A stretch of 63,448 nt of DNA, the filler included, from Asterionella formosa (lineage: Eukaryota), in the NCBI GenBank assembly GCA_002256025.1. It is 10 parts of 10 records of this genome, joined end to end, with 100 filler letters (N's around TTAATTAATTAA, not from the genome) between each part and the next. Parts side by side here need not be neighbours in the genome. Positions count along the whole stretch, not along the records: positions 1 to 18,242 come from NKIB01004138.1; positions 18,343 to 36,570 come from NKIB01004143.1; positions 36,671 to 37,800 come from NKIB01004145.1; positions 37,901 to 39,029 come from NKIB01004146.1; positions 39,130 to 40,258 come from NKIB01004147.1; positions 40,359 to 41,487 come from NKIB01004148.1; positions 41,588 to 59,764 come from NKIB01004149.1; positions 59,865 to 60,992 come from NKIB01004150.1; 2 more parts are not named here. The stretch is one strand, 5' to 3'. The translations under genes were made by a program, and so were the position numbers. Positions 2,716-61,962 of the stretch are shown here, piece after piece. The notes under the pieces were generated by a model. It did not search any database, had not been told where the DNA came from, and saw only the letters and a list, made by a program, of their open reading frames with translations. Within the stretch, counting starts at the first letter, position 1. Each line of letters opens with the position of its first letter.

Positions 2716-4046
2716 GATTACGATGACAAGAGTTCGATCTTTTGCTGAATGGTGCTAGCTTTTCGAGAGTTGACGTTTGAGCAATGGCGAATGGAAGCAA
2801 TATGTGTTGTATTTTAGGTCTCTTGCCTGTATCGTTGTCGTATGGTCCATTAACAGATGAGCATCATCATCATGAGGAGCATTCGGTACCCGTAAATTCA
2901 CCATGTCATCATAGCATGTGTTGGCTGATGGAAAAAGACTTACCGGTAGTACATACGACTTTTCAAGTACCAGTACATTCATAAAAATACTAAAGATGTA
3001 CAAACCGTAGCTAACAGCAAAGGACGAGGCATCGATGCATCAGGGAAAGTCTACAATGACGTCATCCATATAAAAATAGTGATAGCTGCGTGGACTACCG
3101 GTATGTATGAATGTGTGTATTGCAGATAAACTTAGATATTGCCTCAAAAAAAGAGTAACAATAATTCATACAGCTGTTGGTAAACATTCTCTTCCTGTTT
3201 GTGCTTCTTACCATGACAGAATCTTATTCTCAGGTCTCCAATCTTATAGGATTGGGGTGTTTGAAATTGGGGGAATTAGTTTCACCCTAAATTGATCTAC
3301 TGGTAGCCAAATTGAGTTCCAGCAGAAAAGGATTGAAAATGATCATGCCATGAACCATTATGGCCAATGTACGCATTTGAGTAGTGGATTGGCAGGTATG
3401 AATATCCAACTTGTCCAAATCATCATATCAGCAAATTTACTGCAACTTGCAGGTACCTGGTACCAGGAGGAGGGGTACCAGCTACTCCTAGGTACTGATC
3501 AACTCATTGTTACCACCCTCATGTCTGCTCTTGCTTTGCTACTGCCACCATCAGCAATTTGTTTTGGAAATCTGGGATTCCTCATTTCACTGAACAACTA
3601 TACAGGTTCCTTATCCAATATGCCTAGACTGAGAATACCAGTAGACTACCAATATGGTTCACATGCATTTGCTCATTACACAGCCAGTAGCTTGATTTGA
3701 ACTTCGAATGGGACAAGTTAACTTTAACAGACTAAGATTGTGGCATGACAGTGATGTTTGTTTTCCCAAAAAACACTTTTCCGCCCTCCATACTGGTACA
3801 GTAGATTTCTGTCAATTCTCAGTGCCACATCCTGTTACTTAAATTAGTAGGGGTTTTCTACTTTTCTTGTATGGCACTTGCATGTATTCCTTCAAGAACC
3901 ACAATGTCATTTCCTATTTTTTGAAAATCTTTGCAGCGAATTATTGAAGCTACATTATGGTTGAGGTCAGCAGTCACAGCTGCGACATTTGATTTTGTCA
4001 TTTATTGGCCTAAGAGGCTGTTATTTCATTGCTTCCGCATCATCAC

Positions 4047-4433
4047 CTATTCCTTCTGGATCAAAACATTCCACTCTTCGATACTATGCCCAGTCACAAT
4101 ACCTCCACTCACATAGGGATCCTTCTCCACAAACATTTCAGCAGTTGCCAAGTCGGTAAAAATGAAGAGTGCTCCAGTTGGCACTTGCATGTTGGGTGGT
4201 CCAGTCGGTCCACCACTCAAACACTTTCCTTCCGCAGCCAACTGTTTGGCCAAGCCAAGGTGGCCTTCACGAAATGGACCTCTCTTTTCAAGTACATCTG
4301 GAATGTATTCATAACGAAGCAGGTAATTTGTTGCCGCCAGAGTTGTGGAGGATGTAAATGTGCGTGCCGCTTGCCGATTACTGGAAACGAAAGCCATGAC
4401 TGAGATCTTTCCCAAATGAGCTGCTCCCCACAT
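4047..4433 (-). CDS. YciI/YCII-related domain protein with N-terminal organelle-targeting-like extension
   Basis: YLLRYEYIPDVLEKRGPFREGHL...GGP...GALFIF...AEMFVEKDPYV..GIVTGHSIEEW matches the YciI pattern (R..H, DPY). The Ser/Thr/Arg-rich leader follows ...VMAF. Start codon uncertain. Confidence 0.8.
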   Translation of the reverse strand: MWGAAHLGKISVMAFVSSNRQAARTFTSSTTLAATNYLLRYEYIPDVLEKRGPFREGHLGLAKQLAAEGKCLSGGPTGPPNMQVPTGALFIFTDLATAEMFVEKDPYVSGGIVTGHSIEEWNVLIQKE

Positions 4434-5352
4434 GAAATAATATTTACTCTCTTGCTGAGGGGAGTGGATATAATGGAATGGAAGTACCAGGTACCGCCGG
4501 TATCACGGTGTGATGGTGGCGACTGATACACAATCCGAGTACCGGTACAGTGTACCGGGTATGTACGTATGATGGTGATCGAAAGAGGCAGGATGATGAT
4601 GGGCAACATTTTCTGCACGCGTTGAATGAAAAATGCTGACGGAGGATTCTTGTCAGTACTACGCACCGGTGCATATGTACAGCAGTAAAAAACAAAATCG
4701 GTATCTACTACTACCAACGTAGAAATGATCTGAAAGACCATGTAATCAATCCTAAGCTAATATATCCTCAAGTAAATAGAAGGGAGCATCTGGTACCAAG
4801 TACCAGGTACCCTATAAGATATTGCTTTGTCTGTGGATCATAAGGACAGACTATAAATAGTGGTGCATGCATCCTCATCCATGTGTGCTGGCTGGCTGTC
4901 CTGTCGGGAAAAGTTTGTATCCAGTACATATGTATCTATGGGTAAACACGTGCAGCCAAGGCAGTCCTCTCGTGACAGATGGAAAATTTGCCCCAGTATT
5001 TCGTCTACGGGAACGTCATGTAGGCCAATGGTTACTTAAGGAATTTTTAAATTCAATTTCTTCACTTTCTTCTATAGTCGAATAATTTAACTTCTCACAA
5101 CCCATCCCTTGATGACAGAACCTCTATAGTCGGTGGTACCATCATGGTGACTTGTGAGCCAGTTTGTTGCCACAACTTGATAGGTCCATCATGGTGGTTG
5201 CTCTTGCTAATGATAACAATACTGCTACTGTTGTGAATCAAGGAGCAGTAGATGCATTGATTAACACTAGAAAGTCTATGTTTGTTAATTCAATTTCTTC
5301 AATATTTTCTCCTCGTCCTAACAAATTGTGACATCGGAAGATTCTTGGATAC

Positions 5353-5522
5353 TCTGGCTGGACACCCAATAGGACCACAGCAGGCACATTCTCTTCCAAG
5401 AGTATCAAACTGCAACTAACAACCTCCTTCCCATTGCGTATCTGGCTGGACACCTAATAGGACCACAGCAGGCACATTCTCTTCCAAGAGTATCAAACTG
5501 CAACTAACAACCTCCTTCCCAT
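5353..5522. repeat. Tandem duplication, two near-identical 82-bp copies (period 88 bp)
   Basis: TCTGGCTGGACACC.AATAGGACCACAGCAGG...CCTCCTTCCCAT at 5353-5434 and 5441-5522. Confidence 0.9.
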
Positions 5523-7570
5523 GAAGCAATCTCAAATCGCTCCAACCCCCAAGATACACCCAAGACTCCATTGCCATAATTTTTCCTCATCACACATAAG
5601 GCACTTGCCATTATGGATAGGATTGGATGCCAGGGCAGTAACATCATAAAAGTTGACATAAATAACTAAATATGGCTCAATAAATGTTTTCTCTGCTACT
5701 CCATCATGCTAAGTGAAAATCACCCCTCAGTACTGGCCAATTGCAACATTTTTAATTTCTGAAACATGACATAAATGGTAGCTGTTCCTGGAAATTGTGG
5801 TTCATGTGAGTCAGACCTCATGTAGCCAATGTTGGGCATATCTGCAATGACCTTTAAAGAATTTCAGCAGAGAAATGATGACGAAAATGGAAGTGACAAT
5901 GTCAAGAGAAACAACGATGTGCCATGTATTTCATTGCATTTATCATTGACTGCTGTTTAAGAGGATAAAGAAATAAAAAGTTATTAAGTAAATTTTATAG
6001 TACACTATTGTTAAAGAACTCGACAATTGTCATGAAAATTGGTAGTCTCATCCGTAGGAATATTATAGTAATTAATTATAATGAAAATCGTCAACACTCA
6101 ATGCTCCATTGTTGTCGTTGCTGTTGTTGTAAGGTCGTGATCGGCATTCACATCGGCCTATATCCTTTCTCCTCTCCCACCACCAGTATCTCCCTACCAT
6201 CACAATGACGACTCAGAGGTCTTTTCATTCTTTTTCGCTTAACAGACTATCGAATACTATATCATCAGTATATGTGATGACAATTATATATTGTTTCCGC
6301 CATTCTGATTGGTGGAGACAATCTTCATTTGCCCGAATATTAATCTTTGGGAAACAAAGATTGTTCAAGAAAATACGAAGATTGGGTCAATATCAGGGAT
6401 GACTCTCGAAATATTCGGGCGAACGAAGATTAATCTTTGTAATCGGGGGGGATTTGCGAGTTTTTTAGTCCGTGAGGGACGAAAATACGAAGATTAAACA
6501 CCCAACAGGTTATCCAGTCAACTCAATCTTCGTAATTGGGGCACCATAAGACAGGGCCTAAGCTAGTGCTATTCCCCAGGATAAAGAAATATATTATCAT
6601 GGATTTATTAATTTTATGTAGGAATTTACTATTGCCCAATGCTCCAATCATGAAGTATGCAAAATGATTTCTGGAATACAACTTCATCAAAAATTTTGAC
6701 TCAGTGGTAAGCATTTTCATGGATCAATCTTGTAATGTTAGTTACAGCCAGGGAAGGGGCTCAAGAAATGCTTAGCATGAATTCTATATTTTTCAAATGC
6801 ACAAGCAGAATTACAATTTGACTATACCTGGTACCCTCAAATTCTGCCTTGATGGAGTCAAAATCAGGAGAAAATAGAGATAAGCATACAATATTTTACT
6901 CTGCAGGGTACAACATGTTGTAAGTGTCCTGGCATGATGCTCTACATTCCGGCATGTGAAATGTATGCAGCAACACACTTATACGCAACAAGTACCTGGG
7001 ATAACTGGTACTTAACGGTGCCTGGCACCTGGTACCATGTCCAAGTTGCCTACCCAGCACGATGCGACATTCCGGAGAATATGGCATGGCTACTCCGAGT
7101 CATCAATGCTCCTCCTGGTGGACAAGCCAGGTCGCGTCAGCATTGCAGTACCTGTTACCGGTATATACCGCTCTTTGAGGCTGTATGTTATTATTATTAC
7201 ATCCAGGACACCGGCCGCGCTTAATCTTGGCAGGAAGGTCGACAGAATGGTCGTGAACCTGATGAGGAGAAGGGAACGCATGTTCGTCGAGCCAGTGCTC
7301 CAACGAACACTTGTACTAAACCACAGGTAGAAAATTTCCTTGGGTCGGCCCGACTCGTGTGATCTTCGAGGGTTTAAGCACGGCGACAAGGTAATGCAGC
7401 TGCCAAACATATTGTTTGAAAGGCCACTTTGCTGCGATCTACATATGCTGCCAACAAACTAGTTTGCGACGAAGCCTTTTCTCCTTACATTTTGATACAT
7501 CGTGCAGAATTCTTTGATTTGTGAAAGCACCCAGTATATTCAGCTGTCTTCAGATCGTATATAGTAAATC

Positions 7571-13106: not shown

Positions 13107-13626
13107 ATCTTGATGAAAGCCTAGGTGTATCAGAGTGCTCTGTGATCTGGAATATATAACTATTAAGTATTAGGTTACCAACATTACAAGGATTGAGGTA
13201 GTTGACTCGGTCATACTAACCTAGAATCTTGGTTTTGATTGTTTGATTGGCTTGCATAACGTTGCAAAAGGATATATTGAGTACCGGAACTGGTATCGGA
13301 TCTACTGGAGGTGAAGAAGGGCAGCTGTCAAGTTACAATTGATTTATCGACAAAGAACTACCGGTATGCAAGAGTTCGTACCGGCGGTAGTTTCATCGAA
13401 TCTCCCGTTTTAAAACACCAATGCAATCATGATCGGGAAATCGAAACACGTGGAAGGTGGAGAAATATCTCGGTACAGAAATGCTAAATACGTACATGAG
13501 ATGGACAGGCGAACGTAGCAAAAATGACAAACCCTTTGGACAAGGGGAGTAGAGAGACCAAAGAAGAGATAGAGATACGGTAGGCAATTGGAAGCAAAGT
13601 AACTAGTTCGCACCCATTCATGAAAA

Positions 13627-16114
13627 ATGAGGGAGTCAGGAAAGACTTTGGTGGTCCTAACAGGCGTGTTGGCTCTCCTTTTATCCAGTTGTCAAGGTCG
13701 GGCAAGACCATTGACGGCTGGAATATTTGGGTTTGGCAAAGACGAACGGAACGACGATAGACCACCACCGCCGCCTGGTGGAATGGTTCGGCCGCCTATG
13801 AATCGGCTACCTCCAGCTGATCCAAGGTACGATCCATCGAACAGATCAACAACGCCATCATCTCGAGAGGCACAGAGAAAGCTACCACCGCCGCCTCCGC
13901 CGCTTCCTGAATTAAAAACAGACAAATCCGACGCACAGCAACATTCGGAACAAGGTGAAAATAGACAAGACCAATTGAATGAACTTCCCCCACCACAGTT
14001 CTGGGGTGGTTTCAACCCGTACTCATACGGCGGGCCTGGCTGGATGCCACCACCAGACCCTGCATGGACACCACCGCCACAAGATTGGCATCAGCAACAA
14101 TCATTTTATCCCCAAGAGGGCGAGGACATTGATGATTTTCAGCGTTTACAACGTGGATTAGACGAGGCATTGACCAGAGAATCCGAGCTCCTTGGTCATG
14201 TGCAAAATCTTACGTCAGCTATAGCCACCTTTCAACAAAGAGAGGATTTGCACGTACGGCAGCTCGACGTCTTGACTGAACGAGTCATGGACGTCGAAGC
14301 TCAAACAGCGTCGGAACAAAATGCTTTACTGGAGTATCAAGCGAATTGCACTGAGTTGGGGCATGCACTTGCTGTACTTCAAGACGAAATAAAAGAGTGG
14401 GAGAATAAATGTGCAAATCTGACTGCTAGGCATTTATCGGATGAGGCAAAACTCACGGAAATGATGGCTCAAGTAAAGGCCAGAAATGCTGAAGTAGAGC
14501 AGTTTGCCACGATTGTTGAGAAATCTCGACTTGCCGATGAGCGAGATCGATATGTGGCTGAAAGAATGAGAAAGAAGAAGCAACGTGGGTTTTTTGCATG
14601 GTTGTTCGGAATTGGTGACGGTGTTGATGGCGAGGAAGAGCGCCTACAGGTAAGTTGAAGGGATTTGGAATGTTATGCACGGCTACTGTACGGTCTAAAG
14701 ATTTTTGAACTAAATCAACAACGCGTCACAGGAACTTGCGAGATCCACGTTGTTGAGGGCCTTGCAGACGGAGCGAGATAATGTCCATGAACTCGAAGCC
14801 ATTTTATCCATTCTGCAGCAGAACAACTCAGCTATATCGGAAATGGTAGAGTCTCGAGATGAGCTCATAGATGAACTCAATGATCGTGTGGCTGTATTTG
14901 AGGAGGATAAATTGGTTCTTAAGGCAGCATTAAGGCAGCTACAGAAAGAAATGGCAGATGAAGCTCCAAAGACGCAGAAATTGATTGACGATTTACGAAG
15001 TGCTCGTGAGCACGTCAACGCACTAAAGGATGAAGTGAATTCGTTGATAAAAACGCACCAGAAGGAAGTCTCGCTATTGAAGGAAGTAATATCGAAAAAG
15101 CAACTGGCCATTAATGAGACCGAATCCAATCTCACAATGATTGGAACGTATGTTGACAAGCTTGAAGAGCGCCTGGCGTCCTTCGCTATTGCTCGTCGGG
15201 ACATTGAAATCCGAGAACAAATGTGCAATTCAATCAAGCAGCAATCAGTTGAAGTGCAAAACGAATGCGAAATTCTTCGAAAACAGGCCGCTGAATATGC
15301 TGCTGAACATGATGAACTCAAGAAACTGCTTGAGGAATTGGTCACTGAACGAAGTGCCATACAAAGCGACAAAGCGCAACTTCAAATCGAGAGAGACAAT
15401 TTGATTATTCAAAGCGACATGTTACGGTCAAAAATAGTTTCTCTGGAAGACGACGTTGGTGGACTGCATGATGTCATTGAAGAATGGAAGTACAAGGCAT
15501 CTGAACTTGAATCCACCGTGAGCGAACAACGTCAATATCTTGACGAATATGCTTGGAAGGAAGCTGGACGAGAACGTCTCGAAAACGAGGCTTTGGAACA
15601 GATCCGGCTAGCACAAGAAATTTTTCATGTTGAGAAGCAAGCCGAGCGTTTATCTGAACACGAGACGACCAGAGAAGTAGGAGCACTAGATGCAGTCGAA
15701 GTGAGCATGGAAGTACCGGTAGAATTCATCAACGAATATACCGTGCCTCCGGTTTTGGAAGCACTCGACATGCTAGCATCGCCGGGCAACTGTGTCAACA
15801 TTGACGACGAAAACGAATCAGTCAATTGCGAAACGGAGAAGGAAAGCACACTGATGCCGCCTGAGGAATTCATTGATTCCGAACCTATTCTGCCTCCTAC
15901 TTTCAACGACACGATTGTGGCCAACAAACCGCAGCCCCCAATAAAAGGGCCTCCGAGATCTGAGGGAAGTAATCCACCGCACCGCCGCAATGTTCCTCTC
16001 CGAAGAATTCGAAAGGCTTTCTCGAAAGCAACGGGAATCCACGGGGTGTTCACTAGTCCGTCCCGCCGACCCCCTCCTCTAGTAAGGCCATCGGATCCGC
16101 GAAAGGGATCATAA
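13627..16114 (+). CDS. About 800-aa long coiled-coil protein with signal peptide and Pro-rich termini (2 exons)
   Basis: Exon 13627-14649, intron GTAAGT...CACAG 14650-14731, exon 14732-16114 joined in frame (ERLQ|ELARSTLLRAL). Hydrophobic N-terminus and extended heptads. Confidence 0.85.
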
Positions 16115-16789: not shown

Positions 16790-17785
16790 GGTGAATTCGA
16801 AGTTAGGGTATCAGGTAGTCTACGATAAATGTTATCAGTTCAATGAGAAATGCAAAGGCTTTGTATGGTGTGAAAAGGAAGGAAAACACCGGTATATAAA
16901 AAGAAAAAGAAATAACTTCGTTTTTAAGGTAAACATCAACGTAGGCTCGTCCACAGTCTCCGTAAACATACGTCGGCTTTGGGTATCGCCCGTTTGATAA
17001 CGAGAGCAGCGAGCATCACATAAATGTACTACCTGGTACATGTAGCAGCTATACCTAGTCAGCACGTTCTTTCTGCACCAACCCGGAGTGTCGCAACGTT
17101 GTGGCCATGGTTGCATCGCTAGTCAGGGGCAAAGTTTACGTCACCATTTCCTATGAATGTATCATACTGACTGGTGAAACAACCATCGATCTGTTACGTC
17201 ATTTCAGCTGAATCTTTTCATGCAGCTGAAATGATATAAGCACACAAAATCTGGTGAGTAATTTTGTTCTTTAAAATAAATTAGCTTTAAGTAAATATAT
17301 TTCTGACGCAGGCCTCATGATTCCTCCTATCTAATTTTTGGGTAATTTTTATTTCACCCAAAACCTCTTTTCTCTATCAAAACTTAGATTTATTTAGATA
17401 GCAGCAGGACGAGCGAGTGATAGGAATCTCTCCTGTCAAATGCTTCCCTGTAGCAACGTGTACCTACCTACTTGCAGTGAATCTTCAATAGAAGTAAATG
17501 CACAACTAAATCTATTGTTTGCTCACAGCAGCCCTTCATCTTGTAATTGTATACCAGAAAAGCTCCTCTGATTTGAGATGAATTCTTCAAAGAAGAAGAA
17601 TCGCAATGAAGACAGTAGTAATGAAGAGTATGTGGTGAGTGAATTCTCATACGTTTCTACATCTTCATCCAATGATCATGGCAATGCCACTGTCAGTGTT
17701 GGTGGTGCACAGAAAATGAGACAAGAATCCTTTCGCATGCATTTCAATGCTGTAGCTTTTGGTTTTTCAATGAAAACACGGCATC

Positions 17786-19230: not shown

Positions 19231-19580
19231 ATCAATCCATCCCAATCATCCCTTCCAGGATCCCACCCCTCTTGCCTCTGGCCCATCATATGGTGGATAC
19301 ATGCATCATAGTCTATGGACAAATGAGATTCACTGTGGTGCAGGTCGAAACCCCTAGTAAATTCGCCTTATACCACCACCATCACTCAAGTATCCCTATA
19401 AGTCTAGTATGTTAGTTTCCACTTCAAGTTTGGAGCAGACGAGAGCAGAGGAGCCCTTGATCGCAAAGCGGCAGAGGCCGAGAACGTACCGGGTATTCCT
19501 ATTCGAGAAAAGATAAGGCATTTTATTAGTACGGTATTTGGATTACCGATAGATATATTCGCACATTATACATTAGGTTG

Positions 19581-19624
19581 TACCTGGTACCTGGTACCTG
19601 GTGCCTGGTACCTGGTACCTGGTA
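19581..19624. repeat. (TACCTGG)n heptamer tandem array
   Basis: About six near-perfect TACCTGG units about 130 bp upstream of the URC1-like start codon. Confidence 0.9.
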
Positions 19625-19753
19625 CGCTTGCTGTATCTATTGGACTGCGCGATCATTCCTGCTCGTCGTCAGCATTTAATTTATCATTTCAGATCAGGTT
19701 CATTGGCATTATTAATAGTCGTTGAAGAACCACACTCTATAACACTGCAAGAA

Positions 19754-22724: not shown

Positions 22725-25700
22725 GTTGGAATGTTATTATGAATGTGAAGAACAGCTTTTAAGGACTAGTACACAGACAAAAACAACAACACGTAGCGAC
22801 ATGTATGTCACACCATAGAAGCATACGATCGCGAGCAGGTCGTGCGAACAGGAACAGGACAAGATAACACAGCCAAAGGAATTGTATTTTTAGCACTGTA
22901 CTGTAGAGTACATATAATAACAACAGCACATAAATCTCTCCTCGCGTACATGTCTGGATGATACTACCGGTATGCTACGGTAACAACATTTACCTAGTAC
23001 CAGGTCCCGGTACCTGGAAGGTCTGGTGAATGAGATATTTAGCTGTATCTTTTTTGTTTTTGAAGTACCAAACTTGTTTTTGTGGACATTCTTCCTGGTA
23101 CGTTTATTTCAAGTTGCAATAAATGAGCACGAGGTAGTAGTAATGGGTACCTGGTACCAGGGTACCAGTACCTGCAAGTTGCAGTAATTCTACCGAAACT
23201 GGAACACGGCGCCAACAGGCACTCGAATTCGACTCCTCTGGTAAGAATATCATTAGATGATAGACATTCAGAAATTTCCAATGGTTTTGTGCTGGCCAAT
23301 AAATTTCAATATTATCAAAATCTAATTTTGAAGAATGATTTTCTGAGAAAACCAGTTTCCAAACCTTGCTACAATTGGGTTTTTTCCTCCCAATCACAAT
23401 TCTGACTGTCAAGATTCCTTATTCCAGAAATCTCCTCATTTATATGCATTTCATACTAGTACCAGTATGAATGAACAGAAATGCAAAAAGCTGCAGTACA
23501 TACCAGTTTGCATCATATGAACATACTGGTACACAACATGCATGATGTTCTATATACTGTACATACATAGATCATAATGATACAATTGCTCATCTCATGA
23601 ACTTGGGAAATTTCTCATTACTATGAAAACAGACCATGATAAAATGATTTTAATTTTCGATTTTCACAACTGGCTGCTTATCACTTTTATTAGTTTCTGA
23701 GATAGAATACACATGTCATTAGCAAGTAGCTAGTAAAAGAAATGTTCACTTAATAGCTTTTGATATTAATTACGAATTAGCTAGCTAAAATAGAAAATTG
23801 GCAAAAGCAAATGGTGCTCAACTGCAATGACAATAAATCCATGATTTCTTGCCAGATCAAAACCCGAGTAGTTTGTACACAACCATTGTACATCAAGTAG
23901 ACATATACTACAACATCAGTAGTAGTAGCTGAAAACAACAATTGATGTATAATTCGTGATTTATCTGTTTACAATAGACATATCATCATTGTCATGATGT
24001 TGCCACTACTACTATGACTGGTGGTATGGTACCAGCAAACGTCATTTTCCAAGAAAAAATACATGCTTGTAGAACACATAACAAAAAGCATGTTCTGTAT
24101 AGACATATATTGAATTGTACTCATCAGTTCAGAACACAGACAGTACGAGAGTACTATGAATAGTTGATATGTATGTATACAGGGATGGTGATGCAGGCAG
24201 AGAGTATGTATATTATACATATAGTTACCGCAATACTTATTCCAGAACATGTACACTCATCAGCAGGGGCCGCCAAACATATTCTTTGATCGCTCTGTGC
24301 GCGCATCTGACCCTGTCTGAATCTAGCTCTCTGGTAAACCCCCCAATTTTTTTGGATTGGTGGGTTTTCAATGGGGATGAGTTTGACCCTAAAATAGCTA
24401 GTTCCTGCCAAAACGAATTCTAGCACAATAGCATTCAAATTTTCATGCCACGAATGAAAGATAACAACCGTTATCAGAGTTACCCAGATTAAAAAATTTA
24501 GTATAAAGTGATTGATATAAATTTCTTTCATTTTATATCTTATCCATGACCTTCTTAATAATCATTCTGTAAATAAACATGCGTCTGCAAATAAAAAGTA
24601 TCTTGCTTATAGGATCAAGGGTATCTTAAGCTAAGGAGCACAGGATTTTCGTATATATGATAATTTTTGGATCAAAACTATGATCAAGGTATCCTATAAC
24701 TATGATGATTTATTAATATTTTTACCGACCTTGAAGTATAATGATAATAGGAACATTATCATCACACAATGTATATCAACTGATCAACAATATTTCTCAT
24801 CAACATCATAAACCTTCTCATATTATTTTCAATTCTCGTGATCGCTTAATGTAAATTATTACTACAACGCATCCTAAAATCAGCTCAACTCTATACTATC
24901 ATTTCAATTGTTTCATCGTAAATATATCGTAAACATGATCATAATTCTAATCACAAGCATTGTTAAAAATAGATTGAAATGGATCGTAATTCAACTATCC
25001 AGTTTAGCAATGCTATCTATTATTCTACATGCCAGCAACCCAATGTTTCTCTCTCTACTCGGGTCAATGTATATTGTTCCTGCCTCGCCCTTTTCTTCCT
25101 CTTTTCTGAATATTGTGCCAAACAATGCCTTACTAATGTTGCGTCTCTCTCCCTGCTGTTAGTGTCATTCTGAACTCGCCGACTATTCCGTTGTTTGATC
25201 GGTTTTATTTTCCTATACAGTTACAGTAACAATGAGAAGGAATGACTTGTTAGATAGACATGTTACACTGACACAACATCACGCCATTCCATTGTATCCT
25301 CTCACTTGCTTCACTTACCACAGCCAAATCAAAGCAAGTGATGTATAAGGCTGTAATAGTAAATTGTCAGTAAATTCTTGAATAAGTAAGTTTCAGGTTT
25401 CCAATGTTGCCGAATAAAACTTACCGGTTCATTTTCGTTAGCTTAACTTTGAGAGAAGGTAAAGTGGCATGTCCGTCAGTTATGTTCCATCAGAAGTGAA
25501 TAGGTCCAACGACAAGAGCACTTACCAATTTTGTTTTATTTTACATTGGTGCTCCCCAACAAGCGAAACGAGCTGTTGAATCAACTGAGAAAAAAAGAAC
25601 TGAAAAAAAAAGGAAATCTGCATTTAGTTTACAATTTGTTGTTGTCCTACCTCCCAACGATTTTCATCCAAGTACCACATGGATGGCTTCATTACCTTAA

Positions 25701-26333
25701 ACCTACTCCATCCTTCGAAGGCGCAATGTGTCGAGGCCACAATGTTTTTCATTATTGCGTAAACTTTCCTTTTTTTTCTTGTCATGTGCTTTACTACGAT
25801 ATTTCTTTTCATGAAGCAGGCATTGTTTGTTAACATGACAGAATGATTTCAAATGCATATATTTGCCATGTATATAGTTATAAAATTTGTAAATATATAA
25901 ATATATCAAGTGTTGTACCTTTATAAAAATCAAAGGCACTCTCAATATGGCATGTCTGGTAGCTATTGTTGAGATGATCATATTCGCATATAGATAATTC
26001 GAAAATATTCAATGCACAATATGTCCATTGTTTTCCACAACCTCGTGTACCGGTACTGTTTTTTAGAAATTTGTTTGCATCAATATTTTCTACGTCCGTT
26101 GGAACTTATTATTTAGACCATTCAATTGGTCGTGTACTAAGTCATAACCCATTTGTATCATTATTTATATGCAAGGATTTTGGTAGCAGATTGTTTAAGC
26201 CCCTTTTTTGGGCGGGAGTTCTTCATGTGAACCGGTACATCATACAACAATAACATTTTATCATATATATACAGAGTACCAGGTACCAGTAGCAGGTAGG
26301 AAGTGATATACTGGGGGTAGTCAGAGTACCAGG

Positions 26334-37900: not shown

Positions 37901-38695
37901 GCCTGATGGCTGTGAGGGTTTCTTACGTATGAGGTATACCGTAGTATTTAGCAATACTATAATTATAATTATAGTATAGTACAAAGATGAGAAGAAATCT
38001 TTATTTCTACTGTATGTGATACTACCTAGTCTACCGGTAGGTAAGAAATAGCTAGCAGGTGCTAGCACCACTGCCTGGAAAAGTATTTGTCAATGTGAAT
38101 ACGGTATTGTTTTATTTTTACATGCCATAAAAACATACGACTTGCCTTTCATTTTCCTCAACTCTACTGCTGTGGTCTCCCTGAATATACCGGTACACAC
38201 CAAGGTACCTGGTACCTGGTACCAGGCAGTCCATCTCAGTATGTAAGGTAATTAACGGTACGGTGTTGCTCTTCTATTTGTTAAATACCGGTATGATGAA
38301 GTCTCATCCGTCTGTCCCAGGTACCAGGTTACTGTTCCTGGTACTGATACCGGTTCATGATTTATTGGATGGATATCATGCTACCTGGTACCAGGTACGA
38401 GGTAGTAATCATAAGCAACAATAAATATTACGGGTACCTGGTACCTGGTAGCAGGTACCTGGTAGACATGATATTCTATCATGAACCAACATGATTTACA
38501 ATTGTTGGCTCTGTGAACTTCCCGTCAGGCCACCCACCAGAACCCCCTTTTAGCTCGATGAGCCGGGCATGCTGAAGTTTTTTATTTTCGACCAGCAGTC
38601 CGCTTTCTACATATCGGTATACCTGATAAGTATCTGCTGTACTATCATTGACAAGCAAGCCTTTTTTGAAAGAATAAAATATATGATTATATGAT

Positions 38696-39129: not shown

Positions 39130-40258
39130 GATGATCACTGAGTGTGTAAACGGTGCTACTTGATTGCTAGTGCACTAGCTGTCACTATGTACGGGTATAA
39201 TTTTCTGTCCAACGACAAAATATACCGGGACCAGATAGCTATAACTATATACTCCAAATATGTACATAACATACCGATAATAATACATCATAAATGTACA
39301 AGATGTAAAAGAGAGGTGAGGGTTGATTATTTTAACACGTTCTGACGCGTCGTTTGAATATAATAATAACCTTATTAAAGGAGCATGATACAGGTACATG
39401 CACACATACCGGCCGCCGTTACCTCGTGGTACCAGGTACCAGGGTACCAGGTAGTCTCCATTTCAATGGCAGAAGACAGCCAGCGATGATGGAGCAGAGA
39501 AAGTTGCGGAAAATAGGAAATTGAGCTTTGTTTTCCTCTCGGTAAAAACCGTCTTATACGGCAACTCCCAGGGTAGCCTAGTACCAGTACCGTTATGTAG
39601 TTAGATATGTTGTACGACTGCAATTGATGAAGCATCATTTGTATCATGAGGCGATGGCTGATCACGGCATGTGCCGATATGGATATCTACCGGTAATGAG
39701 TTTAGTTGCCTTTGGGAACATACACATATATATATCATTCCCGTATGTGGAGTATTATGTAGCCCCTAACTTTTATTTTAAATACCAGTACCACACAGCA
39801 TATTATGAATAGTTCGAGCTATTACTGATACCTGGTACCGTTACGGGCATGGAGACAACGGTATTAGCTCTTAACTTTTATTTTAAAAACCAGCACCACA
39901 CAGCACATTGTGAATTGTTCGAGCTGTTACTCTAGGCAGTACTGATACCAGGTACCAGGTACCTTCATGTTTAAATATGTTTGAATCATATATACATACT
40001 GAACATTGCTATGCATAACATACCGGTATGATGATACGCAGTTACTTTCAGTCCAGACGTCTATACTTTACCCGGAAGTACCAGGTACCTGTTCGACCCC
40101 GATCCTCTGCCTACTCGTAATACCGGTATATATAGAATTGTACGGTAGTAGCCCGCTAAAATTGTTATGACTTTTTCATTTTTGTGCTTGCAGTTTGTTG
40201 TTCGGCTGCTGCCGGCAAGTCATTTTTTCATTTCTATCATCGTCCTGCTGGTTGATTA

Positions 40259-43120: not shown

Positions 43121-43654
43121 AACAGATATTGCTATAACTTTTTAAATATCATGTGAAAAGTGATTCCCCAAAAGCATTTCACTCATGACTATACAAACGA
43201 AAATAAAAGCCTTCGGGGAATCACTTTTGCACAGGAAACGGCGGCGATGATGAGCAACATGGTGAGCCGATCGAAGCAAACAAATCGGCGCGATATTCCT
43301 TCCTACGGTAGGGATAAGGATAATATTTTGTACCAGCGCTACGTGGGCTACTATAATTGATGCGACCAGCCTTACCGTAGGGTATTAACTACCGGTAGGC
43401 AATTCACGAACTATGTATCGGCGCGCTTTTCGCAACTACCGGTGCATTGTTGCCTTTTCTGTCAACATTGAGTTGCTTACCGGACACTTTGACATTTACG
43501 TAGGTCAGATATGAACAGGCTACATACAATATATTCCACACACGAGTGTACCACAGGGCGGAATCCAGAATCCGTTCATATGCCATACCGGTACTTGATG
43601 TCGAAATCAACAGTACGACATCATAAATATTATTTATTATTTTTATCATTTGCA

Positions 43655-45164: not shown

Positions 45165-45188
45165 ATATACCGGTATTAGGTTCAAGCA

Positions 45189-46975
45189 ATTCCCGCTCCA
45201 GCTATCGTCTTGCCATTCGGATACTTCTAAGTAATTTTTAGTCTCTAAGTAATTTCTTAAGTAATTTTTATTTAAGGGCAATATGGGGCACAACGAATTT
45301 TTCCGCAATAAAATTGCCGATTTTAGCATGACAACCAAAATAACGGTAATATAAATAGAGATGGTACAACAAGCGTAAAACACACGAGAATGATTGTAAC
45401 ATGCAACATCAACGAAAATTGAACATGATGTTTGGAGCAACCAAAGTATGAAATGCGATATAATAAGTAGCATCAATGAGAAATAGAAAAAATTGTTTTG
45501 GGTTAGAAATGAAATAAAAAATAAGAGTTCCAATGGAGACGTATGCATTGTGAATCATTGTAGTACTTACACACCGCCAGGCAACATTGACTTTCCATCA
45601 CCACACAATCGAAGACCGAAATAACAAGGGAAAAGCTGAACCCAATCTTGAACTACATCGTTATGTAGCGTAAATGGTCTGGTTTCTGCAACCATGCGCA
45701 TCGCTGTAGTAGCCTGACACCAGTAGCAGTATTTCCGCAACAGTCATTCCTCTCCGCCCACCACCAAACAGGCAAACCTGATCATTCCATTCTGAGCAAG
45801 CATGATCGCCACGCTGCTCCAGCACTATTGACTCTCTCTAGCTACTAAGTATTCATGTAGCTTCTGATACGAACTCGTAGTAGAAATGTAGCAAAGCGCG
45901 TTAGTACAAGAAAAGCATTGCTTGGCGGCAATATTGACATCATTGCTTGTCAACGACTATACAAATCAACAAATACGATCAACAACGGCACAATACCACA
46001 TCTTCAATGAGTAGTCATTGATAAATGCATTGGTTCTTATGTAGATATATACAGTCGAAACAAAACGACAGTGCGGAACGACAAACAACGACGGAAGCGA
46101 TCAAAACAAACCACGGAAGCAATCAAATCGGAAAGTCGATAAATACGATCTACAATCCACATTCAGTATTTCACTGTTGTACTCACCGATCCGCTTCAAC
46201 TAGCATAACAAGCAGCAGAAGATGGGATAAATGAAAGACGAACGTTGCCTATTGCAAGCCCGAATAGAGCAAAGGCAGGCAAGATAGAGTGAGAACTATA
46301 TTTGTGAGGACGAAATCGGGCATACGGTACGTAAAATCAACGAATATGTGAACGATATAATTCAACATTTCAGGTCTCGTAAAAATAATACCGAGTCTAC
46401 AGAAACAATATTATAACGTGTTCAAAGTAAGCGTTAAAGCATAGCTTAAACCATGCATGGTTGTTTTTAGTACCACGTACGTATGTAGACTAGATGACTG
46501 CCGGTACCGGTAGAATATCCCTTAAGCATCACTACATACATGACCGGAGCAAAAACTTGAATATAAATTATTGGAATCTGTATAGTATATAAAATGGTTT
46601 CCTTAAGTAGACCCCTTGCCGATTTCGGCAATCCCAGGGCTGGAAAACCGAGGGGCAATTGGCGTCTGTTGTCTTGCCAAAATGCGAACATATGAAATAT
46701 AGAAAATATATTTTAATGATGGGCAATATCGGACCTTTGGGAATTTTCGAGGTGAAGATAGGAAATATACAAAATATATTTTATATGATGGGCAATAGTA
46801 GGCTAAAATTGACATTTATGCTAAATTTGTGGGCAGTAGGTGAGCGAATGACGCGACGATAGCTGGAGCGGGAATGGCCTCAACAATACCCTTCTCGGCG
46901 GCTACTTGCCTTCTCGTAAACATGTGTACTCGCAGGCAAGAGACCACCTCGGGCGTGTATTGCCTTCAGGAGCAT
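45189..46975 (-). mobile_element. Repeat family C copy with internal exon-like cargo
   Basis: 46325-46970 is a near-identical inverted copy of 58820-59764 apart from two indels. ATTCCCGCTCCAGCTATCGTC occurs in inverted orientation near both ends (about 45190 and 46855-46875). Confidence 0.65.
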
Positions 46976-47554
46976 GGTGATATGGTACATTACCTGTAAC
47001 CTGGTACCATGGTACCCAGGTACCAGGTGTATACCAGGGGCAACTCACCACGAAGTACTAGGCGATAGAATACGAAAATGATCACCTTACTACGAAATAT
47101 AGCTGTGCAATTGATGCTTTTGCTTTGGCTGTTACTATCACTCCAGCATGTAATGGGCGATAGAATACGAAAATGATCACGTGACTACGACAAATACCGC
47201 CCTTTGCAATTACTTTACCAGGAGGTACTAGTACCTGGTACCTGGTTCCTGCATCCACATGCTGATATACTGGGTAGTAGATCAACTGGTACATACATGG
47301 AGCATCGTTGGAAACACTGCAGCTTTGGTTTCATTACCAGAAGTTTCAGATTTTAAAAACGTAGGGGGAGAGGAAGAGAATCATGCAAGTAACATGGGTA
47401 GACCACATAAGGACTTCCCACAAATGCTCATACCACTGGACATCAATGTCCTTGACTCTGCCCGTTGACCACCCACCATTTACACAAATAGAACCTGATG
47501 AAGTTCCCCCATAAAAGTAGCAGCCCCCCTTCCTTATGAGTCAGAATAGAGGAA

Positions 47555-54468: not shown

Positions 54469-55519
54469 CTTTTGATGTTGTTATGGATGTTGTGGTTGGT
54501 GCATGCCAAAATACCAACGATGGTTGTAATTCCGGTTTTGAGTGATGCTACTGTATTAGTCGATTCTTCACCTTTGCTTACCCTGAAATCAGGTCGAAAC
54601 CTGCAGATTTCGTGGGACTATTGAGACTAGAAACTAATATCAAGTACCTAAACATATCTATACCGAAGTCGTGTGAGCGACGACACTAAGATCGTTCGTG
54701 TAATTGTGTTATGAAATAAGTCAACAAAATTTCAAATTTTGTGTTCATACATGTTATCTTTATTTAAGAGTAGAATTTTTTCAACCGACTTGCTATTTAT
54801 CACTCGGGCGCTGCTGGGTTCAACTGCCGGTACCGGTATAACGATTGCAAGTACCGGTACTGTTATTGTCATTCAGGTATGATGCCTACCGGTAGTATTT
54901 TGTATGTATATATATGTATGGACGTACCCGAATATTTTCATAACTGGTAAATGCAAAGCCGGACCCTAATCGATGTGAATCACGGTTTATATATAAGGCA
55001 ATTTCCGGCGAACGATGTCCTGGAACCTGCTATTGCGTATACAGATACCTGCAGTTGATATTGCATATACCGGTAGTAATTACCAGGTACACCTGGTACC
55101 AGGTACTCGAGTTCTAACATTTTGATACCGGGCGAAAGAATAACAAGAATGTGTATACATTGGGCGGCGTTGAGAAGCTTTTTCAATGATGCATGAAATA
55201 TTTAGGACGGCACAGTCATTTGTTGGGCATATGTGAGAACATTGCTCCATCGCCTGAAAGAAGCCAGAGCGACAATTTTATCCTCCTGATAACGGTTTGA
55301 GATAAAGTTTTAAACATACAGCTGTACGTTTTATACCGACGAAAAGGTGATGTTCGTGAATCCATTTCTAAAAACGCCATGTGTAACTGCATGACACTCG
55401 TTGTGCAATCCTTCCTAGTTACCGGTGAGTCGAGGCACAAAGCGTCAATTTACAGATCAATACCTGTTACTCTGTATGGTACCGAGGGTACCACCTGGTA
55501 CCATGGTACCATAGTACTA

Positions 55520-57030: not shown

Positions 57031-57689
57031 TCACTGTTGTCTGATAGGTGACAGGTTATCGTTGTTAATTCTCACATCTGCATGTATGGAAGAGAAAGAT
57101 TTTATTAATGTCGAAATCCTAATGAATGCAAACGGACCTTACAAACCCTCTGCAGCATTGCTGTGTATTAACATTTCAAGAGCGGTTTCTTACCTTGTAT
57201 CGATTGCCTGTGTGCAAATAGAAAGAGAATAGACAAATTCTACCGGTAATACATGAAATACATCATATCATGTAGAGCATTCAAATCGGAATGGCGACAA
57301 GGAACGCACCGTTGCACAGAATTCATTCTGAAACCATCTGGTACAAGTTTTACATACACGTAAGGTGATCTGTGTAAAGTCAAAACTTTCGATAGAAATT
57401 CAATTGATCAAAGTGCAGAATTTGTTGATCAATCAAAAATTCAATCAATATAACAAAATTTTTGCTTAATCAATAAGTTTTGGAACATACGATAAACAAG
57501 TTTTTATTTATGCATAACCTGACGTGAGTAGTAAGATTATAACCTGAGATACAAATTTAATTGATCACACAGAAACGGTTGTTGATTTATCAAATTTATT
57601 ATTAAAATAACAAAAATTTCGTTTAATCAATGACTTTTTTGACATATACTGAGTAAAACGTTTGATCTAATGGAAAATTTATTCTCAGA

Positions 57690-58815
57690 GGATATGTTCA
57701 GATTTTGGATTACTCAATCCTGAAATTGCCCTTCAGATAAAACATATTTTGTGTATTTCATAGGCTACGTTTTGGACTGCCAAACTAAGTTCAAAATGTT
57801 CAATTCAATAGCCCCTAGATTTGCCTGCCGAAATGGACTGCTGTTTATTTAAAGGAAATGGATTACTGACATCTATTGACCCCCTATGGACTGCCGTTTA
57901 CTTAAGGAAAATCGACAGCCGAAATTGGAAGAGAGTAGGATGAGCTACGTGAAGGCACGAAATGATGTCTTCTGTAATGTGTCGATGGCGATTCCAGTAT
58001 TTACATCCCTGCTGTCTTGGTGTAGCAGACTCCGATCTATGCAAACTCTGATCATTTATTTCTCAAGTACAAACTCTTCAACAAATGGATGTGGCTGGTT
58101 GTTGGATGATTCGACTCTTGGTGACACTTGCTTCTTTGCGCCGCAGTGGCGCCAAAAGTTAGGTTTTTTCGTCAGATATGACCAGCCATTAAATTTTAAC
58201 AACAATGCTTTGGTAAATTCTCTACGTGTCCTACAATATCTCAAATCAGATCTCGGCAGCAAGTTTTAGTGCTTAATTGCTGGCTACTTTCACAGTTGTT
58301 GTGATGGACAACAATCTGAGAAAACTTCTTCTTTGGAGTTTTAGTTTTAGCTCATAACAGGTGAAGTGTGAAATCTGTTTTCAACTTCAGTTTGGAGTTT
58401 TAAAATGGAAGACAAGTCAAGTTATCACCAAAGCTAGCAATACAAATAGTTGGATGAGTAAGCTTGCAGCTATTAATGTAAATTGGAAAGTACTTTAACA
58501 AGAAACTTCATCTCAAATCTTTCGATGCTTATTTCAATCATTCTTGTGTGATCATTTTTCATGCATATACCGGTATTTTGTGGTCCACCATGCATTTTTG
58601 ATGTGGCATCTATTGCTTGATTTTTATCAAAGCTTTTTCCCATGAAAATTCAACTCCTGACGTTGCTCGATGATCCCTGCTCACACCTAAAATTGGACTG
58701 CCGAAAAAACTGTGCCCCTTCATTGCCCCTAAAAATAAATTACTTAGATATATCAAAAATAACTTAGACACCCACAGTTCTCATCGAAAATGAAGACGAT
58801 TTAGCTAGGGTAGGG
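57690..58815 (+). mobile_element. Family C copy (subterminal block, internal segment, opposite end)
   Basis: 57700-57910 matches the family C block. 58690-58750 resembles the reverse complement of 45255-45310. Confidence 0.5.
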
Positions 58816-59864: not shown

Positions 59865-60064
59865 ACAGCAACGCACTGATGCTGTTGATGAAATGCCAAT
59901 GGCTGCGATTACCGGTATACAGAAATAGTATCGAATGGATTCCATTCGTCGCCATTTTGATGGTGCTCGTTTGCTAGCTATGTAGTAATCAGGATTGACA
60001 TGAAACGTGATACCAATAGTATATAAATAATTTGATGATTACCTTTATGGTATCCGCCGATTCA

Positions 60065-60135
60065 GCACTAATGGTGTAGTGGTAACATAAACGCCTTCCA
60101 AGCGTTTGCCCTGGGTTCGATTCCCGGTTGGTGCA
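60065..60135 (+). tRNA. tRNA-Gly (anticodon TCC)
   Basis: 71-nt cloverleaf: acceptor GCACTAA/TTGGTGC, D-arm with TGG, anticodon stem AACGC-CTTCCAA-GCGTT and T-loop GGTTCGATTCC. No encoded CCA; a T5 run lies about 10 nt downstream (Pol III terminator). Confidence 0.96.
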
Positions 60136-60992
60136 ACATAAAATTTTTGCCATTTTCTGCCGGCGTGTTGGTTGGCTCAATGTTATTGCTATTTATTTGT
60201 TTACAACTAATGTGGCTAGGACTTGTTATTTTGCGAAAAAATTTAGCTAATAGTAAATCTGATGGACTGCTACTTGTGTTCTTTTCTCCTGTTTCACTTG
60301 TTGTCCTTGCTATCACATCTTCCTATGGTTTTTTTGAAATAATTGTCATGAATTCATCCACTGCCTAGCCTTCTTTGAACAAGCAATCCTACTTCTGCTG
60401 CTCTCTTCTTTTATTGCACTGGTTGCTGCACTGCTAGCTTGTTCATTGCCATTTCTACCTCCTAGTAGCACATTCCATTTTTTGCCCTTGCTTTTTTCAT
60501 TTTTCATAGTGAGTGTCCGGTATAGTATTTTTATGGTACCTGGTACCAGCTACCAGGTAGTATGTCGTATGTGTAGAGTCCTTTGGGTGTTTGGAACTCG
60601 CCGTGTTTGAGCACCTGTACGTATGTTCAACTGCCTCTACCGGTATATTCATTATGTACCATCTGTACCAAACCAAGGCGGCCCCAAAATTCTGTCATTG
60701 ATATCATTATCATTTGATCATTTCATCCAATCGCTTCGCTTTTGTTTGTGGCTGTTGCTTCCTTGTTTGTTTCTATTGTCTCTTCCTTTCAAAATCACCC
60801 GCCATTCTAGCATGACAATCACAAGCACCAAAGTGAATGCCACAGCAGATGCTGCAGATGAAGCTGGAGGAGAATCTATTTACTGTAGTGATGGATTACC
60901 ACCATTGCCTTGTCCTCCTGTGCCTGCCTCGGTCGCACGAATGGATAACGAGGAGCTCTTGTTGGATTCAACAACGACGAATGATAGTGCTA

Positions 60993-61092
60993 NNNNNNNN
61001 NNNNNNNNNNNNNNNNNNNNNNNNNNNNNNNNNNNNTTAATTAATTAANNNNNNNNNNNNNNNNNNNNNNNNNNNNNNNNNNNNNNNNNNNN
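60993..61092. other. Artificial contig linker
   Basis: N44-TTAATTAATTAA-N44. Confidence 0.97.
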
Positions 61093-61962
61093 TCATGCCT
61101 CTGGCAGCATTGATCCATTCTTTCCATCACTGCTGTAAAAGAAAAGGTTCTTTGTCTGCTTTCGTGACAACAGCAAGCAGCAATTCTTATTCAGGTATCG
61201 AATGGTGCTGAATCGTCAACTACAGTGAGGCACTCGGTGTCTTCCTTTAGCTCAACAAGAAGTGATTTTCTTGTCCAACACAAGAATGATGAAAGCCAAT
61301 GATGGCGAAGGAAAATTGAGGCATGATGGGCCGAAATGTCTCGGCTACTACATTTATGAACGTAGGAGAATTGCATCCCTTCGTCCGTCATCATGTGTCC
61401 ACATGGTCATGCTCCTCCAGATGCGCATGCCTGATGATAACGGGACCTTGTCCTGTACTGTACAGTACCAGCAAGTTGCGGTATTTTTGCAGGACAGGCG
61501 ATCAAAATTATTAAATAGAGAACGTCATCAATCGACAGGATCATGACTTGTTAGTGATGTAAATAATTATTTCGTATAAACGCAGAAAAGTCAAAACGAG
61601 GCACATTGCTTGAAAAAGAAAATGACAATGACCGGGGCAATAGAGGGGCCGCCCAAGGCAAGTAAGCAAAAGTACCGGAAGCAAAGTAAAAAAAGTGAGC
61701 AATAATTGCTTACTTTGCTTACCTTATCCTCTCCAAACTGAAAGTCGTTCTCCTTTGTTAAATTGTCTACCGGTAGTTGAAATATCACAGATCTTACTTT
61801 TAAGATCTCTAAAGCTGAAAACGTATTTTCACTTTACACTTTGTAATATTGTGAGCTTTCTGTTAATAGTCTATCTAGTCTTGTTCTTGCCTGATTACTC
61901 ATGTAATCCCGAACAAGACTTCTCACACTTTCCTTGATCCCGTCAAAATGATCTTGCTTACT

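Follow-up and report, generated by a model that had tools for sequence, protein, structure and literature searches.

Why should one eight-letter palindrome recur dozens of times in the DNA between the genes of a freshwater diatom? The question is raised by a window of Asterionella formosa DNA, by which is meant the whole stretch of 63,448 bases analysed here, consisting of 10 unlinked contig pieces that are joined by N44-TTAATTAATTAA-N44 linkers and include one 10-N scaffold gap. The word is TACCGGTA, an 8-letter palindrome and inverted repeat made of two TACC half-sites, and it is accompanied by a nonamer, TACCWGGTA, in which a single A or T separates the same half-sites. An earlier reading of this DNA (hereafter, the original prediction) had put forward three candidate causes, namely methylation-directed repair, templated micro-insertion, and a dimeric binding protein, of which the last is the best supported. 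The explanation favoured here, to which a probability of about one half is assigned, is that TACCGGTA is a protein-binding promoter element shared across the stramenopiles and unusually dense in this DNA, and that the seven-base repeats found with it probably arose by slippage.

Thirty-one exact copies of TACCGGTA are present in 62.6 kb, compared with a mean of 0.37 and a maximum of 2 in dinucleotide shuffles, none of 100 of which reached 31. The nonamer TACCWGGTA likewise has 31 sites in 62.6 kb (shuffle mean 0.23, maximum 3). These counts, like the positions of the octamers, agree with the original prediction of about 30 exact octamers and of a similar frequency for TACC(A/T)GGTA, and the group that it placed at 54830-54890 consists of octamers at 54831, 54852, and 54887. 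Markov backgrounds were fitted on the 47,955 bases outside 13 long open reading frames (ORFs); orders 4-5 absorb the motif itself, and at orders 0-3 the numbers expected outside the long ORFs were 0.62, 0.26, 0.61, and 2.89 for the octamer (30 observed) and 0.37, 0.27, 0.61, and 1.25 for the nonamer (31 observed). The enrichment, which for the octamer is about 10- to 100-fold outside the long ORFs, therefore persists in the window against the kind of background that had been proposed as a check. When all 8-mers are ranked, TACCGGTA is second to G8 alone, and G8 is a poly-G/poly-C artefact beside the 10-N gap; the artefact-like stretch at 10558-10676 comprises about 30 G, the gap, and about 72 C, is probably of sequencing or scaffolding origin, and inflates poly-G k-mers. 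Among palindromic 8-mers, TACCGGTA is the commonest, the runner-up being TGGTACCA with 15 sites, which itself belongs to the repeat family.

The octamer density is about 0.5 per kb overall and about 0.6 per kb in non-coding DNA, that is, one per about 1.6 kb, and motifs are present on 7 of the 10 contig pieces, in line with the expectation that most contigs would carry them. The long ORFs (14.6 kb) contain one octamer and no nonamer, and a single motif out of 62 falls in the 14.7 kb of provisional coding sequence, so that the near absence from exons claimed earlier is borne out. The earlier description of the motif as saturating the non-coding DNA was an overstatement: the motif is sparser in AT-rich repeat stretches, and none occurs in the AT-rich, repeat-rich intervals 26286-30252, 30261-34915, and 47241-54830. 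The gene that holds the sole exon octamer, at 15714, is real and of the expressed type, as a 99%-identical protein of 662 aa is present in a public collection. Apart from the motif, TAGCTA is also over-represented across the window (27 sites, 9 expected), as is GTAGTA, and gene-adjacent intergenic DNA is generally rich in GTA/TAC words.

The octamer is sharply defined. Its 12 classes of one-letter variants have 0-5 sites each, except for the CpG-transition class (TACTGGTA/TACCAGTA), which has 15 sites versus 1.4-2.7 expected. One-mismatch sites total 50 versus 10.6-16.2 expected, leaving roughly 35 decayed copies above background alongside the 31 intact octamers, with CpG loss making up roughly a third of the decay. 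The enrichment lies in the TACC/GGTA half-sites and not in the CCGG core, because the shares of sites with TA on at least one side (60/115 for CCGG and 63/113 for CCWGG) exceed those of 15 control four-letter cores (1/69 to 36/124); CCGG without TA flanks (55/115 sites) is not enriched, and the overall CpG observed/expected ratio is 0.73. Inverted half-sites are found 31 times with no spacer, 33 times with one letter between them (31 A/T, 2 G, 0 C), and 7 times with two letters, and spacers of 3 to 7 letters have 1-5 sites each; the two-letter spacers are mostly CCWGG with one additional letter. As to the flanks, A or C is preferred at -1 of the octamer, whose 62 ends carry GG in 3 cases and G at -1 in 13. 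No helical or nucleosome-length spacing of neighbouring sites was convincing by eye, the sites being few. Three octamers (46495-46512, 54821-54838, and 60628-60645) have a common left flank, (A)ACTGCC(GG/TC), before TACCGGTA and may be a minor sub-family or an extended form of the motif.

The octamers are not copies of one transposon, as the original prediction had also held, because the 100-bp flanks of the 31 sites match one another only where neighbouring flank windows physically overlap, in matches of 15-23 bp that consist of the motif itself or of the letters just to its left, and in a single 31-bp inverted-repeat pair. Several known types of binding site were compared with the octamer. 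The X-box bound by RFX factors requires G at -2 and T at -1, and this reading was rejected, these being the rarest letters at those positions (4/62 and 5/62 ends, respectively). The Grainyhead/CP2 site AACCGGTT has the same inner ACCGGT as the octamer, but the outer letters here are T and A, with 31 sites versus 5 in the AACCGGTA/TACCGGTT class, in which one end only has the Grainyhead-like letter. The 7- and 8-bp sites of bZIP dimers provide a precedent for a single factor that reads half-sites with or without an extra central base pair. To our knowledge, no factor of the Grainyhead/CP2 or bZIP type for such sites is known in diatoms.

The exclusion from coding DNA and the decay of the central CpG both bear on the comparison with HIP1 (GCGATCGC) of cyanobacteria, which is likewise a dispersed, exact palindromic octamer found roughly once per kb. 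The cores CCGG and CCWGG are classic targets of bacterial-type cytosine methyltransferases, and HIP1-type palindromes are found in coding and non-coding DNA alike. If a similar process operated here, cytosine methylation at CCGG/CCWGG together with biased mismatch repair would restore or create the palindromes genome-wide. The octamer density is within the HIP1 range, and the prominence of CpG transitions among the decayed copies, seen also in a repeat pair that reads TACCGGTA in one copy and TACTGGTA in the other, is compatible with methylation of the central CpG. However, a repair bias should also hit coding DNA, and because only one motif in 62 lies in coding sequence, a genome-wide substitution or repair bias is unlikely. 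Frequent loss of the CpG speaks against protective repair, CCGG is not enriched outside the TA context, and the specificity includes the outer T and A, which is beyond any CCGG/CCWGG enzyme site. None of 62 window ORFs matched a methyltransferase family, although 62 kb says little about the genome. Highly iterated palindromes (HIPs) have been tied to orphan methyltransferases (PMC4390886). HIP1 itself is prokaryotic, has methyltransferases for its sub-sequences, and lies inside genes as well, whereas the diatom motif is excluded from coding DNA. The analogy drawn in the original prediction is weak, and this explanation is very unlikely.

The position of the motif with respect to genes was assessed with 11 provisional gene models, which were built from long ORFs, Pfam matches, protein-to-DNA alignments, and 5'-end translations. 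Genes (14.7 kb) contain 1 motif cluster (0.07 per kb), the 600 bp upstream of them (5.2 kb in total) contain 9 (1.73 per kb), the 600 bp downstream (3.0 kb) contain 1 (0.33 per kb), and the unannotated remainder (39.8 kb) contains 30 (0.75 per kb). The density upstream is in keeping with the clustering next to genes that had been claimed, and the excess of upstream over downstream clusters is suggestive only (binomial P = 0.07). Of the 9 genes with at least about 260 bp of sequence upstream, 6 have a motif within 600 bp; it lies 52-600 bp, and in most cases 270-420 bp, before the start codon. For the minus-strand gene with ATG 54468, the poly-A RNA contigs of two studies extend over the transcript to 54720 and 54691, and the three-octamer cluster begins at 54831, 110 bp past the end of RNA cover at 54720; the bin 54920-55525, which holds a second motif cluster, has no cover in either RNA run, these being contig data and hence no proof of silence. 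The sites are as follows.

2941..2948: TACCGGTA, about 351 bp upstream of the provisional SPT5 start (gene on the minus strand)
3096..3103: TACCGGTA, about 506 bp upstream of the provisional SPT5 start
3454..3462: TACCTGGTA within GGTACCTGGTACC
4485..4547: TACCAGGTACC and TACCGGTA, 52 and 107 bp upstream of the likely start of a YCII-domain gene (minus strand)
4801..4809: GGTACCaagTACCAGGTACC, 368 bp upstream of the YCII gene
6825..6833: TACCTGGTA
7156..7163: TACCGGTA, 415 bp upstream of ATG 7571 (ORF of 573 aa, plus strand)
13359..13366: TACCGGTA, 268 bp upstream of ATG 13627
15714..15721: TACCGGTA, the sole octamer in a confirmed exon, reading V-P-V in a poorly conserved part of the protein
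17030..17038: TACCTGGTA
19580..19625: seven-base array of GTACCTG, 6.6 copies, with four TACCTGGTA, 310-345 bp upstream of the GTP cyclohydrolase start
22965..22972: TACCGGTA
23148..23156: TACCTGGTA in a GGTACC chain
26048..26055: TACCGGTA
26277..26285: TACCAGGTA
30253..30260: TACCGGTA
34916..34957: mixed cluster, GGTACCAGGTACC ... TACCGGTACCTGGTA
35403..35410: TACCGGTA
35929..35936: TACCGGTA
38032..38039: TACCGGTA
38188..38223: TACCGGTA followed by GGTACCTGGTACCTGGTACC
38286..38293: TACCGGTA
38382..38464: five TACCWGGTA, contained in two seven-base arrays
39428..39453: seven-base array of GGTACCA, 3.6 copies
39688..39695: TACCGGTA
39829..39837: TACCTGGTACC, adjoining copy 1 of a 105-bp tandem duplication
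39946..39961: TACCAGGTACCAGGTACC, adjoining copy 2 of the 105-bp duplication, with the central letter flipped and one extra unit relative to copy 1
40021..40128: two TACCGGTA and one TACCAGGTACC
43390..43397: TACCGGTA
43586..43593: TACCGGTA, lying beyond the left inverted repeat of a candidate mobile element by about 70-105 bp
45168..45175: TACCGGTA, lying beyond the right inverted repeat of that element by 6 bp
46505..46512: TACCGGTA in a high-copy repeat, the inverted copy at 59578 reading TACTGGTA (CpG transition)
47232..47240: TACCTGGTA
54831..54894: three TACCGGTA, 363-419 bp upstream of ATG 54468 (gene on the minus strand)
55068..55105: TACCGGTA and two TACCAGGTA, about 600 bp upstream of ATG 54468
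57241..57248: TACCGGTA
58568..58575: TACCGGTA
59910..59917: TACCGGTA
60537..60559: GGTACCTGGTACCagcTACCAGGTA
60638..60645: TACCGGTA
61768..61775: TACCGGTA

The octamer at 46505 and its counterpart in the inverted repeat copy differ by a C-to-T change with no indel, and this is the only paralogous pair that covers a site. The two copies, 46326-46927 and 58915-59764, form an inverted pair of a high-copy repeat with 97-99% identity and a 248-bp indel, and two CpG transitions are among their differences. The candidate mobile element at 43664-45161 is about 1.5 kb long and bounded by inverted repeats of at least 41 bp according to the repeat finder (93% complementary) and of about 55 bp by eye, with TACCGGTA lying just outside both ends at unequal distances.

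The same octamer has been described upstream of genes in oomycetes, another stramenopile lineage. Motif M94 of Phytophthora infestans is TACCGGTA, one of five palindromes among 103 stage-linked promoter motifs, and was rated 'high-confidence' and found to be over-represented in the promoters of several effector families (PMC3597505). In Plasmopara halstedii, streme-5 (ATACCGGTAT) lies upstream of 206 genes and was equated with motif-9 (GTACCGGTA) (PMC10031896), and motif-9 of Phytophthora is an inverted repeat upstream of 1,284 genes in several genomes, which its authors read as a homodimer site (PMC3520976). The palindromic octamer that is over-represented upstream of oomycete genes is identical to that of the diatom, and A is the commonest letter at -1 here too (23/62 ends). 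The oomycete motif is described for a subset of genes and in connection with infection-stage expression, whereas the diatom octamer accompanies most of the testable genes at its high non-coding density, and the seven-base arrays seen here are not mentioned for the oomycete motif in the parts of these papers that were available. A sister palindrome, TACATGTA (M93/motif-1/AM-20), has the same outer letters TAC..GTA and differs in the two central letters; it is present 4,150 times in P. infestans promoters and is, in the sources consulted, the only member of this word class with an experimentally shown protein partner, as PsMyb37, a MYB-related protein of Phytophthora sojae, binds it in yeast one-hybrid and gel-shift assays (PMC11134190). 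CCGGT, GGTAC, and TACATGTA are absent from the main text of a binding-array survey of P. infestans factors (PMC11267843). No published diatom study of TACCGGTA was found, the sole full-text match that also contained 'diatom' being the Phytophthora study, and a search of the diatom literature for an ACCGGT upstream motif returned no diatom promoter-motif study among the matches listed, as judged by titles.

Based on these likenesses, a possible mode of action may be outlined. The octamer would serve as a sequence-specific protein-binding element in promoter-side intergenic DNA and would most likely be the diatom counterpart of the oomycete motif (M94/motif-9 of Phytophthora and ATACCGGTAT of Plasmopara). 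A dimeric factor could read the two inverted TACC half-sites, and by analogy with PsMyb37 on TACATGTA this factor is perhaps MYB-related. Most of its sites, alone or in small clusters, would stand 270-420 bp before a start codon, and the sites may affect transcription.

The nonamer calls for a separate account. Its ends carry GG in 39 of 62 cases and G at -1 in 50 of 62, giving GGTACC-W-GGTACC, and single units have GG at their outer ends too. The 31 nonamers make up 20 loci, and the central letter is uniform in six of the eight loci with more than one nonamer; Tandem Repeats Finder reports period-7 arrays at 19580-19625 (6.6 copies), 38204-38223, 38433-38464, and 39428-39453. Because the flanks differ so strongly (GG on 39/62 nonamer ends versus 3/62 octamer ends), the two forms are not one family, and the original view of a single family with a 0- or 1-bp spacer is doubtful. 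In the reading preferred here, the nonamers are the units of a (GGTACCW)n microsatellite, whereas the octamer is a distinct word that mostly stands alone. The microsatellite would then be a second component that grows by replication slippage in the same regions; its arrays would offer overlapping inverted TACC half-sites one base further apart, to which the same factor may or may not bind.

Similar arrays are found well beyond diatoms. A scan of prokaryote genomes for the array GGTACCWGGTACCWGGTACC returned at least 110 stretches in real bacterial contigs, the hosts including Acidimicrobiia, Gemmatimonadaceae, Planctomycetota, Chitinophaga, Xanthomonas, Streptomyces, Cellulomonas, and an Omnitrophota genome. 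As in the diatom, the unit is GGTACCW, arranged in tandem between genes, but in 80 of the at least 110 loci the octamer is at chance level (16 in 1,028,158 bases), and the arrays in these 80 loci often run into other seven-base units. The bacterial (GGTACCW)n arrays (loci L236-L315) are 20-48 bp long, and some genomes have several of them, such as an Acidimicrobiia bin with seven loci and a Planctomycetota bin with five. Since the same array is found in many bacteria without octamer enrichment, the seven-base repeat is a general slippage product for which no diatom-specific cause is needed. No seven-base array was found in viral contigs, and a viral-contig scan for an octamer-pair pattern gave 120 stretches that were chance-like, with 0.079 further octamers per kb in 80 flanked loci.

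The arrays suggest a neutral origin for the whole feature, in which slippage-prone (GGTACCW)n and (CCGGTA)n repeats arise, break up, and leave functionless fragments in intergenic DNA that is under loose constraint. The four period-7 arrays of the window, their bacterial counterparts, and the proximity of 6 of the 20 nonamer loci to an octamer (within 60 bp) are consistent with this origin. It would account for the nonamers but not for the octamers, whose ends rarely carry GG or G; these are mostly isolated in unrelated sequence, no TACCGGTACCGGTA run was seen in the window, and broken repeats would not leave the exact word in excess of each of its variants by 31 to 5. As an explanation of the octamers together with the arrays, neutral debris is therefore improbable.

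The outer TA letters direct attention to transposition. Every motif reads TA-CC(W)GG-TA, and chains share the TA (as in TACCGGTACCTGGTA at 34943), as would be expected of excision scars left by a TA-targeting cut-and-paste transposon of the Tc1/mariner type with ends CC...GG, repeated visits of which would build chains. The two-letter spacers, mostly CCWGG plus a letter, would suit such scars; insertions of 6-7 bp would not persist in coding DNA, matching the single motif found there, and the decayed copies fit steady birth and decay. Around the exon octamer at 15714, considered as a 6-bp insertion, homologues align poorly and the region is not conserved. The taCATGta scar of Tc1 in Caenorhabditis elegans, an analogous structure of TA, a few letters, and TA, is mentioned in the Phytophthora study, whose authors weighed and rejected a Tc1-footprint origin for the sister palindrome TACATGTA (PMC3520976). 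Such footprints are rare and are found with resident elements, whereas here dozens occur in 62 kb with no element, a number that would be unprecedented. No parent element was found in the 62.6-kb window or in the metagenome loci searched (described below): a scan for TA-CC...GG-TA ends, defined as 16-nt inverted repeats with at most 3 mismatches placed 40-6000 bp apart, in the window and in 115 of the at least 115 metagenome loci gave 74 end pairs, none of them credible, the 20 in the window being 19 built from motif arrays and the octamer pair 38032/38293 (3 mismatches). Furthermore, none of the 62 window ORFs matched a transposase family (Pfam), 21 of 52 TACCAGG sites lack a following TA and have no common extension, and the pattern of tandem repeats and slippage is seen both in the GG at nonamer ends, those of single units included, and in the central letter, which is uniform in six of eight arrays. 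Excision scars of this kind are thus a quite unlikely source of the motifs. A low probability is likewise given to a eukaryotic counterpart of the highly iterated palindromes, with an active generator of the insertion type, for example a TA-targeting transposase or end-joining, that keeps writing exact TA-CC(W)GG-TA into non-coding DNA, where the copies later decay. If such a generator existed, tens of thousands of copies would be molecular scars and not selected binding sites, similar words in unrelated metagenome contigs would mean that the process is widespread, and insertion scars would constitute a genome-wide mutational signature of a kind that is new for a eukaryote.

Metagenome contigs were scanned for three octamers within 30 bp of each other, which gave at least 115 stretches; these loci were picked for the motif and are unfit as a measure of its frequency elsewhere. 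Many of the matches listed are regular tandem arrays of unrelated organisms, with spacings such as 11-11-11-27, 21, 30, and 37, and none of the at least 115 stretches was similar to the window by blastn among the matches listed. An unrelated metagenome contig of 6.1 kb (L199) has GTA-rich stretches 130-400 bp upstream of three ORF starts, in which the same words occur (6 octamers, 3 nonamers, and 10 GGTACC), and ankyrin repeats are present in one of its ORFs. On the same contig, the palindromic GTTCACCGGTGGTGAAC is found beside TACCGGTA clusters at 3570-3590, 4461-4490, and 5521-5545, at most about 250 bp upstream of ORF starts, and at least one of the adjoining ORFs is RING-like; CACCGGTG is mildly enriched in the diatom window, with 4 both-strand counts (2 sites) versus about 0.7 counts expected. 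Eight loci from one lake-type study (L122, L142, L144, L157, L173, L188, L214, and L223), which are motif-selected, have 40 octamers in 8.4 kb and contain further words centred on CCGG, for example ATCCGGAT and GGAGCCGG. Their host is an intron-bearing eukaryote. In L157 the octamers are located between two exon-like ORFs, and a Pfam search with the exon-like ORFs of L157, L142, and L122 returned nothing that names the host. In L186, L194, L200, and about 15 similar loci, TACCGGTA arrays with 11-11-11-27 bp spacing are inverted and about 600 bp apart, and resemble the termini of a small mobile element from a different host. The motif-selected loci show only that a similar local grammar occurs in other genomes.

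Returning to the proposal that TACCGGTA is a binding element, the enrichment and specificity of the word, the location of the sites (for one gene just beyond the part covered by RNA), their exclusion from genes, the palindromic structure, and the oomycete precedent fit this reading, as does the similar grammar upstream of three ORF starts on L199, and several observations weigh against it. The non-coding density is far higher than that of the oomycete motif, and tolerated variants are nearly absent, so that the word is sharper than most binding sites. The roughly 35 decayed copies suggest turnover rather than strong conservation, and the differing flanks of octamer and nonamer are not predicted by a single dimer with flexible spacing. 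The upstream excess is not significant and depends on provisional gene models, and 30 of 41 clusters lie in unannotated DNA, including repeat-rich stretches. The oomycete sister motif TACATGTA is not enriched in the window (2 sites versus about 2.3 expected). In addition, contig L199 was selected for the motif, and the nearest Atlas clusters of an ORF other than the one with ankyrin repeats are giant-virus RING proteins, at a weak score of 0.90. A bound protein need not activate transcription. Yeast general regulatory factors show comparable behaviour, and the octamer could similarly mark a chromatin boundary, a nucleosome-excluding site, a replication origin, or a recombination hotspot. The density of nearly one cluster per intergenic region and the presence of the palindrome in repeat-rich DNA are in keeping with such a role, but the sole experimental precedents of this word class in the literature consulted are promoter motifs, and a purely non-transcriptional site is considered unlikely.

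The feature is best filed as an unusually dense case of the stramenopile TACCGGTA promoter palindrome together with an ordinary seven-base microsatellite. If the binding-site reading is correct, the octamer would be the commonest promoter-side element so far noticed in a diatom, and its occurrence in oomycetes as well would point to an old stramenopile regulatory factor. It could then provide a handle for finding a general promoter factor and for predicting promoters in poorly annotated diatom genomes, and might be of use in compact synthetic promoters of ecologically or industrially important algae.

The sequence of the window is not peculiar to a single data set. At least half of the sampled words from 50000-59700 are present in 6 public runs, of which the best holder is perhaps the source sample, and part of the stretch is present in 20 of the 24 public runs listed, which come from 13 studies and for the most part carry freshwater or lake metagenome labels. 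For 41588-59764, all 30 bins had depth in the DNA contigs of two runs, each from a different study; a high-copy repeat extends over much of 41588-51283 and 55526-59764, where the summed depth is 100-2000x that of the unique part, 51284-55525. Six of the ten contig pieces have a size of about 1.13 kb, and the first linker, at 18243-18342, is followed by eight further linkers. A Pfam scan of the 62 window ORFs identified the SPT5, YCII, and GTP cyclohydrolase domains and one weak match only. The GTP cyclohydrolase gene, at about 19926-21340, has its closest named relatives in the diatoms Nitzschia, Fragilariopsis, Thalassiosira oceanica, and Fragilaria (79-85% identity), and unnamed metagenome proteins reach 93-95% identity. 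Finally, a 66-bp tandem repeat at 17769-18137 (5.5 copies, 82% matches) lies within an ORF at a contig end.

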